The notes under the pieces were generated by a model. It was not told the DNA's origin. It worked only from the letters and a program-made list of their open reading frames with translations, and did no database searches. From a phage: 64,000 nucleotides of DNA. This document shows, piece after piece, positions 5,687-52,718 of the stretch (its first letter is position 1; each line of letters begins with the position of its first letter). Made by a program: the position numbers and the translations under genes. The stretch lies in sequence record PZ445436.1. One strand, given 5' to 3'.

Positions 5687-5869
5687 CTTTTTTAAAAATA
5701 TTCGTAATAAATGTGAATACCAACTACTACCGCTGAAACCTGTGCAACCCACCACGCACAAGCAATAAGTACAGAATTCAAAATTTTCATAATAACCTCA
5801 TCACAAAAGTAAATGTTAAACAAATTAATGGAATACTAATTAACCAAACAAAACACCACCATAATGAAC

Positions 5870-10654: not shown

Positions 10655-10688
10655 TAATTATACCACATCCTTGTGGTAAAGTAAACTA
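10655..10688 (-). promoter_or_regulatory. Early promoter (rIIA.1/rIIA), overlapping the 3' end of gene 39
   Basis: GTTTAC (10681-10686), 18 bp, TATAAT (10657-10662). Confidence 0.55.
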
Positions 10689-12506
10689 CTGGCTCATCCA
10701 TTCTTTACGAAGGTCAGCATTATCTCCCATGAGCATTTCAAAAAGCTCTTTCCAGTTCTCAGGAAGTTTAACAACATCATATACTGGGTTTTGAATCATC
10801 TCACGATATTCAGATTTTTCCAAAGAGCCAAGTCCCTTAATATAACGGATGCTATGTTTAGGTAGAGCATCTTTGGCACTCTCATATTCAGCGACTGTAT
10901 AAAACCATTCTTGTTTTTTACCGACCTGAGCGATGATTACAGGAGTTTTGACAAAGCGAATTCGTCCTTGCTCAAACAATTCTGGCCAATTACTAAAAAA
11001 CCCGAGCAGAGAAGGATAAATGCTTCCTAGACCATCATGGTCAGCATCAGTCATAATAGCAATATTATGATAATTCAAGTTTTCAGCTTTTTCACCAAGA
11101 ACTAATCCAGTGATTGCGCAAATATCAAATAGTTCTTTATTTTTAAGCATATCAGCATATGACATACCCCAACTGTTGAGAACTTTACCACGCAATGGAT
11201 AACCACCATGAAGTTCTTTATCACGAACATCAATAAGATATCCGATAGCAGAATCACCCTCAGTCAAGAAAAGAGTAGTATCAGCATCTTTACCGCAAAG
11301 ATTCGCTTTGATATGTTTATGAACCTTAGCTTTAGAAGCCTTTTTAGCTGCTTTAGTTTCTGCTGCTTTTTCTGCCGCCAATTTACGAGCCAAAGCAGCT
11401 TCAATAATCGGCATTAGAATTGCTTCATTATTTAGAATAGCACGTGAAATCTTTTTAGCATCAAGTTGAATATGACTACGGATTTCACCAAATGGAGAAG
11501 TCAAACGCTCTTTAGTTTGAGAATCAAATCGCATGTTTTTCATATCACGGACAAACATAACGATAGTCAAACATTCTTTGACACGTGCTTTAGTTACATC
11601 AATTTTGAACTTACGTTTGATTTGTGGAATAAGGTCTTCACAAATATCATCCATAACACAGTCAATGTGATGGCCACCATTCTTAGTATGAATGTTATTG
11701 ACGTATGTTAATTGACGAAAACCATCTGGTGAACGACCAACCGCAATAGAACAATTTTCTTGTTCTTGAACGATAGCATGTTCATCATACTGTCGTGCGT
11801 ATTTCTTAAAATTACCCTGAACCTTTTTACCATTAAAGGTAAATTGAATATCAGGATAAACAACAGCAAGTGTCTGGAGACGATCCAGTGTAATGTCAAG
11901 ATAAACTTGGGACAGCTCATTAGTTTCAAATGACATAAAATCTGGAATGAAAGTAACACGAGTTCCTTTCCATTTTCCAGGAATAGTTTCCCAGGATTTA
12001 TTTTCCATGCCATTTGAACAACGAACTACAATATTATTTTGACCATCGCCAGTTTCACCGACAAACATCACAGAAAAAATGTTAGTTAAACTAGAACCAA
12101 CACCATTCATACCACCGGTGACACGTTCTTTATCATCACCAAAGTTACCACCCGCTTTTGGAATAGTCCAAGCAGCAACTGGACCAGGAATTTCTTCACC
12201 GGTAGGTGTTTTAACCATCGCTTGTGGAATACCACGACCGTTATCTTCAACTGTTACTTGATTGTTTTTGATAGTAACATTAATTTTATTTGCGAATTTA
12301 AACTTAGTACGAATACCTTCATCTACTGAGTTATCGATAATTTCATCAATAAGCTTAACAAGACCAGGTACATACTGAACACTTTCCCATTTACCAAACA
12401 GAAAGCGCTCATGCATTTCATTAGCAGAAGAGCCAATATACATGCCGCTACGCTTTTTGATATGTTCAATATCGCTCAGAATTTTAATTTCATTCTTAAT
12501 CATCAC
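10686..12506 (-). CDS. 39: DNA topoisomerase II large subunit (ATPase + TOPRIM), unsplit 606-aa form
   Basis: GyrB-like motifs; one continuous ORF, unlike the T4 split into genes 39 and 60. Confidence 0.88.
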   Translation of the reverse strand: MMIKNEIKILSDIEHIKKRSGMYIGSSANEMHERFLFGKWESVQYVPGLVKLIDEIIDNSVDEGIRTKFKFANKINVTIKNNQVTVEDNGRGIPQAMVKTPTGEEIPGPVAAWTIPKAGGNFGDDKERVTGGMNGVGSSLTNIFSVMFVGETGDGQNNIVVRCSNGMENKSWETIPGKWKGTRVTFIPDFMSFETNELSQVYLDITLDRLQTLAVVYPDIQFTFNGKKVQGNFKKYARQYDEHAIVQEQENCSIAVGRSPDGFRQLTYVNNIHTKNGGHHIDCVMDDICEDLIPQIKRKFKIDVTKARVKECLTIVMFVRDMKNMRFDSQTKERLTSPFGEIRSHIQLDAKKISRAILNNEAILMPIIEAALARKLAAEKAAETKAAKKASKAKVHKHIKANLCGKDADTTLFLTEGDSAIGYLIDVRDKELHGGYPLRGKVLNSWGMSYADMLKNKELFDICAITGLVLGEKAENLNYHNIAIMTDADHDGLGSIYPSLLGFFSNWPELFEQGRIRFVKTPVIIAQVGKKQEWFYTVAEYESAKDALPKHSIRYIKGLGSLEKSEYREMIQNPVYDVVKLPENWKELFEMLMGDNADLRKEWMSQ

Positions 12507-12557: not shown

Positions 12558-12576
12558 AGGCCCGAAGGCCTTTTAT
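12556..12576 (-). other. GC-rich UUCG-type hairpin
   Basis: AAAGGCC-CGAA-GGCCTTT palindrome. Confidence 0.4.
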
Positions 12577-12842
12577 TTAAAACGAATAGTTGAATCCTTA
12601 AAGAACAGCCCAGAACATACTGTTCCTTCTACTTTCTGCCCAGTAGGTCCAACAGCACGAAATCCAGTATGTTGGAAATCATTTTCAGAGCAACCGAACC
12701 AGTTATATCCAGTGATTTCAATATTCGTAAAACCACTTGATGATAAAATTTTAGTTGCATTATCAGCATCAGTGCATCCTACTAAAGATACTGCTAATAC
12801 TAATGCTGCGATAGAACGATTAACATATTTCATAATTTTCAC
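12573..12842 (-). CDS. Putative lipoprotein (89 aa)
   Basis: N-terminal signal peptide with lipobox LVGC (MKIMKYVNRSIAALVLAVSLVGCTD...). Confidence 0.5.
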   Translation of the reverse strand: MKIMKYVNRSIAALVLAVSLVGCTDADNATKILSSSGFTNIEITGYNWFGCSENDFQHTGFRAVGPTGQKVEGTVCSGLFFKDSTIRFK

Positions 12843-13210
12843 TTAAATTTAATGGCTTGAAGGAGACTAATAATTCTTAAACGGCTTCTTTCATCTTTAA
12901 CTGTAAAAGAAAGAGGGTCGCCAGATTTCATAGTAATAGTGCATTCAAAATCAAAATCTTCTGTGACTTCTTCGAAGAAGTCAAATTCTTCATCATAAAT
13001 TAGAACACTACTTTGCAGACTGTGGAGAGTTTTTCCAGCATTTCCAGATGCTGTACCAATCATTGTAACATTATGACCTTTCATATCTTCAACGATAAAT
13101 TCGTTTGTCAATATTACAGCATTAATAGAACTATTCCTATTACTAACAGAAAGTAGAAATTTCTGTTCTTCACCTTCACGAATACGATATTTCTTACCAA
13201 TTTTAAACAT
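12839..13210 (-). CDS. Hypothetical protein (123 aa)
   Basis: ORF track. Confidence 0.5.
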   Translation of the reverse strand: MFKIGKKYRIREGEEQKFLLSVSNRNSSINAVILTNEFIVEDMKGHNVTMIGTASGNAGKTLHSLQSSVLIYDEEFDFFEEVTEDFDFECTITMKSGDPLSFTVKDERSRLRIISLLQAIKFK

Positions 13211-13212
13211 AA

Positions 13213-13389
13213 TTACCCTTTAAGTAAGTCGTAAAAACCACCATTCACATGCTTAGGAGCAGAAGGCCGACGAGTAGACAGACGATGACATTTAGGGCAA
13301 ACATCATTTTCTCGTTCAGAAATCTTTTTAATTTTTTCATATTCATGCCCGCAATCTTCGGATTGGCATTTATAATCATACATTGGCAT
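13213..13389 (-). CDS. Small zinc-ribbon protein (58 aa, two CxxC pairs); absent from the ORF track
   Basis: Hand translation MPMYDYKCQSEDCGHEYEKIKKISERENDVCPKCHRLSTRRPSAPKHVNGGFYDLLKG; SD AAGGA; fills the gap between flanking ORFs exactly. Confidence 0.5.
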   Translation of the reverse strand: MPMYDYKCQSEDCGHEYEKIKKISERENDVCPKCHRLSTRRPSAPKHVNGGFYDLLKG

Positions 13390-13391
13390 AA

Positions 13392-13817
13392 TTATTCCTT
13401 AAAATGTGCTTTCAACATCTGATACAAGGACCATGCATGTTCATTATTTTCAATAGTAACTTTCATGACCGGGAATTCTGTGAAATCTTCTATTTGTTCT
13501 TGCTCTTTCTCTTCCTGCTCTTGCTCTTCGGCTGCCTGGTATGGATTTTCCACTTCATCAAAGAACACAGCTTCGCTCGTTGAAAGCCAGATAAAATCTT
13601 CATCCAAAATATCTTTACCAGAAGATAACGCCAATTTTCCACTAGATGTCACAAGTTTAGTAGGACGACCAAGATAGTCAATATCTGTAACTCTAAAAGG
13701 TTCCATACCAAGACGACGTGCATAAATTCCGTTTTCAGTATGGTCCTTGATAAAATCTTCTTGAGCTTGTTTATTTTTAAATTGATACCATTTATTAACT
13801 TCAAATTTAATAGCCAT
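13392..13817 (-). CDS. Hypothetical acidic protein (141 aa); size and position suggest goF, not verified
   Basis: ORF track; acidic [11 protein letters not shown] stretch. Confidence 0.5.
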
Positions 13818-14032
13818 TAATAAGTTTCCTTCCAGTAAGTTGTGCCATCTTCAGTAATTTCACGAAATACACCGTAAATTGGTTGTTTATCACCAACCTT
13901 TTCATACACATAAACCGAAGTCAAGTGAGTAAACTTAACGGTATGTTCTTTTTGAACTACTACCAAATCTGGATCGAATAGTACATCTTCAAATTCGTCA
14001 TTAGTGCAATTCTGAACAATTTTACGTTTCAT
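13817..14032 (-). CDS. Hypothetical protein (71 aa)
   Basis: ORF track. Confidence 0.45.
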
Positions 14033-14412: not shown

Positions 14413-14904
14413 TTATGCATAGCGAGCTTTGCTATAGTGTTTAATCCAACTTTCAGGAATGACTTTGTATGTTCCTAAAAATACCGCGTTGTATAACTTA
14501 ACGCCATCTTCTACCCATTGATCAGTAATGTATGCACACATAGCGCGAGTACGGTTAACAACACCTTCCTCACCTTCAGTAAATTCAAACTCATAAGGAG
14601 CAACGAACTTAATAGCCTGACCGAGTTTCCACTTAAAGTCTACACCTACATGCGAAGTATCAATCGTTTCAATTCCTTTAGCAGGAACAGCTTTCAAAAA
14701 CGCAGATTCAAGAAATTTCGCACGAACATAGCCAAACTGAGGTTTAGACTTTCCATCTTTAGGAATGATACGCACTTTTACTTCAGAATCTTCATCTTTA
14801 ACACCGTGTTTAAGCTGAATGCTTACAACTTCGACCAATTTTCCTGCCGCTTTAGAGCGGGATTTATCAGATACACGAGCTAATTCACCAATATTAATAA
14901 TCAT
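14413..14904 (-). CDS. Hypothetical protein (163 aa), paralog of the next ORF
   Basis: ORF track; C-terminal TDQWVEDGVKLYNAV motif shared with 14978..15415. Confidence 0.5.
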   Translation of the reverse strand: MIINIGELARVSDKSRSKAAGKLVEVVSIQLKHGVKDEDSEVKVRIIPKDGKSKPQFGYVRAKFLESAFLKAVPAKGIETIDTSHVGVDFKWKLGQAIKFVAPYEFEFTEGEEGVVNRTRAMCAYITDQWVEDGVKLYNAVFLGTYKVIPESWIKHYSKARYA

Positions 14905-14946: not shown

Positions 14947-14980
14947 CCATTATACTCTGGTCCCAAGAGTTTGTAAACTA
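14947..14980 (-). promoter_or_regulatory. Early promoter
   Basis: GTTTAC (14973-14978), 18 bp, TATAAT (14949-14954); GGGACC/GGTCCC inverted repeat around the -10. Confidence 0.5.
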
Positions 14981-24531: not shown

Positions 24532-24602
24532 TATTTTTCCTTTCAATTCATGGGTTAGTAGATTAATTATACAATAAATATATAAAGCAATAAGGAGGAC
24601 AT

Positions 24603-39611: not shown

Positions 39612-39666
39612 GTTTTTCCTCCATAGAGATTATACTCTAATAAATTAAAGCATAATCTCTTATAAA

Positions 39667-44813: not shown

Positions 44814-44842
44814 TTTATTTTACCAAAAATTTATAAAGCAAT
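44814..44842 (-). promoter_or_regulatory. Candidate middle promoter for alpha-gt
   Basis: Minus TGCTTTA (plus 44834-44840), 11-12 bp, TAAAAT. Confidence 0.35.
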
Positions 44843-52248: not shown

Positions 52249-52718
52249 TTTAAACTCTTTCTAAGCTGCTTCTTGAATGAAGCTATTAATTGTGTTTTGG
52301 TGTCAGATTCATTATATTCAAATCCTCTTTGAAGCATCTCAGCCATCATTTCCTCTTTTCCTAAACGAGAAAATTCCTTTGATTTATCTCCAACAAAGTT
52401 AGGGTGAATATTATTTTGGGTGTAATCGGATTTTAAATAAGTAAGTAAATTTTCTAACCATTCAAGATAATCAACACCTTGCCCCTTTAAGCCAGAACGA
52501 TTAAATTTATGTTTCATTTGACCTTCTGCGGCATTGCAGAGATTACAAAGCAATCCACGTACCTTTCCTGCTTTTGGTCCATTTAATTCATGGTCATGGT
52601 CGAGGTGATTAGCTTGAACGTCAGGATTTAGTTCTCGTTGGCAAATTAAGCATTTACCATTTTGTGCATCATAAAATTTCTGTTTTTCTTCTTTATATAA
52701 TTTGCCAGTCAATAACAT
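52245..52718 (-). CDS. 49: Endonuclease VII (gp49, Holliday junction resolvase)
   Basis: 157 aa as in T4 endo VII; Cys-rich zinc site and H-N-H-like residues. Confidence 0.82.
   Translation of the reverse strand: MLLTGKLYKEEKQKFYDAQNGKCLICQRELNPDVQANHLDHDHELNGPKAGKVRGLLCNLCNAAEGQMKHKFNRSGLKGQGVDYLEWLENLLTYLKSDYTQNNIHPNFVGDKSKEFSRLGKEEMMAEMLQRGFEYNESDTKTQLIASFKKQLRKSLK

Follow-up and report, generated by a model that had tools for sequence, protein, structure and literature searches.

The co-chaperonin of phage T4 is Gp31, and the key GroEL-dependent substrate of this phage is its major capsid protein, Gp23: Gp31, a GroES-type protein, takes the place of GroES as the GroEL lid, and Gp23 cannot fold without it. 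The product of T4 gene 39.2 (NwgI) shares with Gp31 the adaptation of the host GroEL machine to the needs of the phage. Gp39.2 is, however, an unrelated zinc ribbon of 58 amino acids, is dispensable on wild-type hosts and, according to the descriptions, shifts the conformational equilibrium of GroEL rather than capping the chaperonin. The gene was reportedly first picked up from RB69 by Ang and Georgopoulos, and its homologues from T4, RB43 and RB49 are said to have behaved alike; its production reportedly suppressed groEL/groES temperature sensitivity, and its overproduction is said to have been lethal. In the essay by Georgopoulos that summarises this work (Ang & Georgopoulos 2012), the T4 protein is presented as modulating GroES/GroEL in a subtle way: results from both genetics and biochemistry suggest that it shifts GroEL to an open conformation, to which GroES co-chaperones of host or phage origin can bind, and specific groEL mutant hosts completely block a T4 39.2 deletion but not the wild type (PMC5153855). 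The same summary of T4 39.2 is given in an independent paper (PMC4396842).

At the level of the protein family, the closest described system is FmdB (PF09723; TIGR02605, CxxC_CxxC_SSSS), for which no function is established as a whole and whose bacterial member examined adjoins housekeeping genes, not groEL. Most members of TIGR02605 carry a degenerate, low-complexity C-terminal tail that lies outside the model.

The sequence considered here, called the window, is a stretch of 64,000 nucleotides from a phage (record PZ445436.1), and all positions refer to it. On its minus strand, a 58-codon ORF occupies 13213..13389 (ATG 13389-13387, TAA 13215-13213, as read from the sequence) and encodes the protein MPMYDYKCQSEDCGHEYEKIKKISERENDVCPKCHRLSTRRPSAPKHVNGGFYDLLKG. 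It is treated as a gene 39.2 orthologue (NwgI-like) according to the ORF itself, the names given in other records, the identity to T4 and the dN/dS values. The TAA of the upstream gene, goF (comC-alpha, 13392..13817), lies at 13394-13392 and is separated by 2 nt (tt) from the ATG of 39.2; likewise, 2 nt (tt) lie between the TAA of 39.2 and the ATG, at 13210, of a 123-aa ORF (RB32ORF005c-like, 12839..13210). A Shine-Dalgarno sequence, AAGGA, can be read at 13396..13400 (minus strand), 6 nt 5′ of the ATG and within the last goF codons; the context aaggaataat(t) is also found 5′ of the ATG in 39.2 orthologues. Both junctions and the ribosome-binding site are thus as stated in the first-pass annotation, which had described an ORF filling the gap between its neighbours exactly (stop, 2 nt, ATG) and having its own Shine-Dalgarno sequence. 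The same annotation had placed the ORF below the size cut-off of its ORF track; it is indeed shorter than 60 aa, but most records of related genomes do annotate it.

All genes adjoining 39.2 are carried by the minus strand. In the direction of transcription, the neighbourhood comprises a motB-like gene (14413..14904), a 93-aa ORF, cef (13817..14032), goF, 39.2, the 123-aa ORF, 39.1 (12573..12842) and a fused topoisomerase gene, 60plus39 (10686..12506). From cef to 60plus39, the order is the same in RB51, whose record names the ORF 39.2 and places it between goF and 39.1. It is also the same in T4, where 39.2 lies directly 3′ of goF, except that T4 lacks the 123-aa ORF, 39.1 thus following 39.2 directly. 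Both the 123-aa ORF and goF match PHROG 622 (E 2e-28 and E 2.5e-39, respectively), whereas pairwise BLASTP gives no similarity between the two (E 4.6); the 123-aa ORF may be a very diverged paralogue of goF. The gene of the topoisomerase large subunit is a single 606-aa ORF in the window, named '60plus39' in RB51, and does not have the split arrangement of T4, in which gene 39 (1551 nt), mobA and gene 60 are found. The N-terminus of 39.1 shows a lipoprotein-like signal (MKYVNRSIAALVLAVSLVGC...). Its start is a GTG in the ORF listing and an ATG located 9 nt downstream (261 nt) in related records.

Yersinia phage PYPS2T, Escherichia phage Ozark and other Tequatroviruses match positions 12800-13900 with 100% identity. 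On sequence grounds, the window is assigned to a Tequatrovirus genome and its 58-aa ORF to the orthologues of T4 gene 39.2 (NwgI). The feature is already known under this name and is annotated in hundreds of T4-like genomes; in other records the product is called 'FmdB-like transcriptional regulator' (RefSeq) or 'zinc ribbon domain protein' (others). Compared with the T4 Gp39.2 of resequenced genomes (MT984581, OL964735), 47 of the 58 residues are identical (81%) and the alignment has no gaps. The window gene thus shares with the T4 gene studied by Ang & Georgopoulos (2012) its length of 58 aa, 81% identity over the full length, its position after goF and the stop-2 nt-ATG junction with this gene; the proteins share the Cx4C...CxxC cysteines and the C-terminal SAPKHVNGGFYDLLKG. 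The 11 substitutions (window to T4) are M3L, E11K, G14A, H15K, E27D, N28T, K33D, S38A, T39V, R41L and P42V, most of the differences being found at residues 14-15, 27-28 and 38-43.

The choice of the T4 record matters for this comparison. In the T4 reference (NC_000866 / AF158101 / M89919), 39.2 encodes only 45 aa. Resequenced T4 genomes, among them MT984581, OL964735, HM137666 and KJ477684-6, all differ from the reference by about 3% over 300 nt at this locus, and MT984581 and OL964735 encode a Gp39.2 of 58 aa, MPLYDYKCQSKDCAKEYEKIKKISERDTDVCPDCHRLAVRLVSAPKHVNGGFYDLLKG. Relative to these two records, the old reference shows several G/A differences and one extra T, leading to a premature stop in 39.2. 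The Georgopoulos essay also gives a peptide of 58 amino acids, in agreement with the resequenced length (PMC5153855). The adjacent gene, 39.1, has 198 nt in NC_000866.4 and 261 nt in resequenced T4 (segments compared: 2399-2840 of NC_000866.4 and 661-1100 of MT984581.1). Judging from the alignments, the differences at 39.2 and 39.1 look like errors of the 1990s sequence. In Shigella phage vB_SsoM_113 (LR746311.1, 63968-64140), the match to 39.2 is 100% identical but split in two pieces, the annotated protein (P0005) having 47 aa; this split is probably a frameshift or a sequencing error.

The protein exceeds the curated cut-offs of both family models: 45.7 bits for PF09723 (Zn_ribbon_8; cut-off 34.4), with residues 1-41 aligned on profile positions 1-39, and 44.9 for TIGR02605 (FmdB family zinc ribbon protein; cut-off 31.3). 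It also matches PHROG 1076, 'FmdB-like'. Its N-terminus, MPMYDYKC, fits the MPxYxYxC start of the family at the initiator Met, and its cysteines form two pairs separated by 17 residues (CQSEDC ... CPKC), as in other FmdB proteins: C8 (codon 13368-13366), C13 (13353-13351), C31 (13299-13297) and C34 (13290-13288), all on the minus strand. A HMMER search with this single short query against 1.84 billion cluster representatives retrieved 155 clusters at E <= 1e-3, and PF09723 is present in all of the 74 proteins obtained by profile search. In an alignment of 67 sequences, C8, C13, C31 and C34 are the only invariant columns, and conservation is 90% or more at M1, P2, Y4, Y6 and P32.

Two features distinguish the 39.2 protein from the rest of the family. 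Firstly, its first knuckle is a Cx4C, which is found in all close Tevenvirinae relatives and which the PF09723 profile takes as a 2-residue insertion. The closest clusters belong to a phage-type clade of proteins of 55-68 aa whose shared motifs are KI.KISERD, located between the two knuckles, and SAP..V.GGFYD, located in the tail; within this clade, the T-even group has Cx4C as its first knuckle, the others having CxxC, CxC or CxxH. In five close relatives (P0081, P0084, P0098, P0119, P0188), the second cysteine of knuckle 1 is replaced by His (C-x2-H), and P0188 also lacks the first one; judging from these sequences, some variation of the first knuckle is apparently compatible with the zinc site. 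Secondly, the tail carries the conserved SAPKHVNGGFYDLLKG motif with GGFYD, is not of low complexity and therefore lacks the Ser/Gly-rich stretch that is typical of the family (but not required); it resembles the GSGFYxTDY ending of some members.

A model of moderate quality, built by AlphaFold2 with the alignment, gives four short strands arranged as a zinc ribbon (mean pLDDT 71, about 80 over residues 1-41). The zinc-ribbon domain (residues 1-41, 13267..13389, minus) is followed by a C-terminal tail (residues 42-58, 13216..13266, minus) that is predicted to be disordered, with pLDDT values under 50 in most of its final 12 residues (47-51 and 54-58). According to this model, the four cysteines would bind zinc. 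A sequence search of the PDB gave no related solved structure; the best match, bL31 (E 0.78), is not significant. The structural neighbours of the model are zinc ribbons, with matches to ribosomal-protein folds at low Z. Generic zinc ribbons (bL33, MCM N-terminal domain, RbpA, Rpb12) resemble it in fold only, show no significant sequence similarity and carry no functional implication. The first-pass annotation had proposed an FmdB-type zinc ribbon with a CxxC...CxxC arrangement. The two family cut-offs and the four-strand model bear out the ribbon, and the conservation of the cysteines in homologues, named there as a check, is found at all four positions; of the arrangement, the second pair (CPKC) holds and the first, a Cx4C, does not.

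The reading that best accounts for these data, and that we consider likely, is that the gene is the orthologue of T4 39.2 (NwgI) and encodes an early zinc ribbon acting on host GroEL. The GroEL function is carried over by orthology from the T4 experiments. The product would fold into a four-cysteine ribbon with a Cx4C first knuckle (residues 1-41) and a flexible tail with GGFYD (42-58). It would act on host GroEL and shift the chaperonin to its open form, able to bind co-chaperonins of the GroES type encoded by the host or by the phage. This shift would allow the growth of the phage on hosts whose GroEL is suboptimal. The earlier suggestion that small early proteins often bind host targets agrees with this: according to published descriptions, the 81%-identical T4 orthologue modulates host GroEL, and its transcript is classed as early.

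Three other functional readings were weighed. It is unlikely, though less so than the two that follow, that the protein is a real zinc ribbon whose main target is another host factor (ribosome, RNA degradation machinery or defence system), the effects on GroEL being indirect or due to overproduction. The matches to ribosomal-protein folds reflect generic zinc-ribbon topology at low Z, and that to bL31 is not significant; furthermore, the T4 deletion mutant is reported to be specifically defective on hosts with groEL mutations, a loss-of-function phenotype and not an artefact of overproduction (PMC5153855, PMC4396842).

The name 'FmdB-like transcriptional regulator' would imply that the ribbon binds DNA or RNA polymerase and alters early gene expression, and the first-pass annotation had likewise compared the protein with regulators. 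To our knowledge, the FmdB name comes from one founding member, for which a regulatory role was only proposed, from the position of its gene. A literature search on FmdB and zinc ribbons found no demonstrated DNA-binding role and no regulatory support for any member. The protein has no helix-turn-helix and, besides its 41-residue ribbon and disordered tail, no recognisable DNA-binding element; GroEL is the target indicated by the only experimental study of an orthologue. A transcriptional role is accordingly improbable and finds no support here, the likely role being modulation of the host chaperonin.

About as improbable is a generalisation in which the whole FmdB family would act on chaperonins and the ribbon with its G-G-F/W-Y tail would be the GroEL-binding module of phage and bacterial members; in a narrower form, the Cx4C knuckle and GGFYD tail of Tevenvirinae would be a phage-specific adaptation to GroEL. 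Apart from membership of the family, neither form finds support in these data. Gp39.2 is the only experimentally characterised FmdB / Zn_ribbon_8 member that was found. No chaperonin gene lies beside the one bacterial homologue examined, which adjoins polA, hexapeptide transferase and cysS-like genes, or beside the one unrelated phage homologue examined, whose neighbours encode SSB and Dam. A GroEL function for the whole family is thus unsupported, since the homologues examined are not beside chaperonin genes.

Data on the expression of T4 39.2 are compatible with an early role of the T4-type protein: the transcript is classed as early (PMC9697503 Table S2). In the same work, the protein is given as 'NA', i.e. 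undetected in the proteome time course, and 39.2 appears in the gene table as the truncated reference version, 5702-5839 (PMC9697503). If the truncated gene was also used in the peptide search, this, together with the few tryptic peptides of a 58-aa protein, could explain why Gp39.2 peptides were missed. In the window, a consensus scan places a sigma-70-like promoter match (TTTACA-17-TATAAT, 11/12) at 14949..14977 (minus strand), 5′ of motB. This assignment is a suggestion only, because the scan gave 7 sites against 9.4 in shuffled sequence, i.e. no excess. No terminator-like site was found on the minus strand between this match and 39.2, and no MotA-box middle-promoter pattern near 39.2. From sequence features of this kind, the match is a candidate early promoter for the motB-cef-goF-39.2 run, with early read-through. 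The whole window contains 11 occurrences of the MotA-box pattern (TGCTTYA-N11-13-TANNNT), where shuffled sequence leads one to expect 2.2 (none of 100 shuffles reaches 11); examples are found on the minus strand at 24566-24589, 39629-39652, 44817-44840 and 52311-52336. Translation of 39.2 would use its own AAGGA site on an early polycistronic mRNA (motB, cef, goF, 39.2 and the next ORFs). Since 39.2 has a stop-2 nt-ATG junction at either end, its translation may be coupled to that of goF and of the following ORF, the coupling to goF being probable.

The stretch 13213..13389 is a protein-coding gene under purifying selection. The length of the ORF alone proves nothing, because a window with a GC content of 34% yields spurious ORFs (45-60 aa) that overlap the position of 39.2; in the ORF listing, two others, of 44 and 57 aa, overlap this stretch. 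Conservation is what makes 39.2 a real gene: dN/dS, codon-position bias, presence in 885 records and four invariant cysteines. Pairwise comparison (Nei-Gojobori) of its CDS with 20 orthologous CDSs gives dN/dS values of 0.03-0.17, dS ranging up to saturation. T4 differs at 35 nucleotides, of which 9, 5 and 21 fall on codon positions 1, 2 and 3, respectively. By tblastn, the protein is matched in 885 phage records, with at least 80% of its length covered in 851, at identities from 100% to below 60%; length and motifs are kept from 100% to about 40% identity across phage records. An intact ORF with the same ATG is present at every locus extracted (30 related IMG/VR loci, T4 and RB51). ORFs of the opposite strand or of alternative frames were rejected on the purifying selection and codon-position bias of the minus-strand frame; taken alone, the stop counts of alternative frames in orthologues do not decide the matter. 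That the ORF arose by chance in an intergenic gap, or that the true frame is on the other strand (57-aa ORF, 13249..13422, plus), has a negligible probability: AT-rich sequence does give many short ORFs, and the 44- and 57-aa ones overlap 39.2, but selection and codon-position bias act in the minus-strand frame, length and motifs are conserved across the 885 records, the scores exceed curated Pfam and TIGRFAM thresholds, and the neighbouring genes are all on the minus strand.

As a discovery, the ORF carries little weight: hundreds of T4-like genomes have the gene annotated, and the function of its T4 orthologue is published. It is of some practical use, however. A cut-off of 60 aa for ORFs hides real, functionally characterised phage genes. 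The truncated, error-containing 45-aa 39.2 of NC_000866 / AF158101 (58 aa when resequenced) can mislead proteomics and homology work. Lastly, as a product name, 'FmdB-like transcriptional regulator' is probably a misnomer for a modulator of GroEL.
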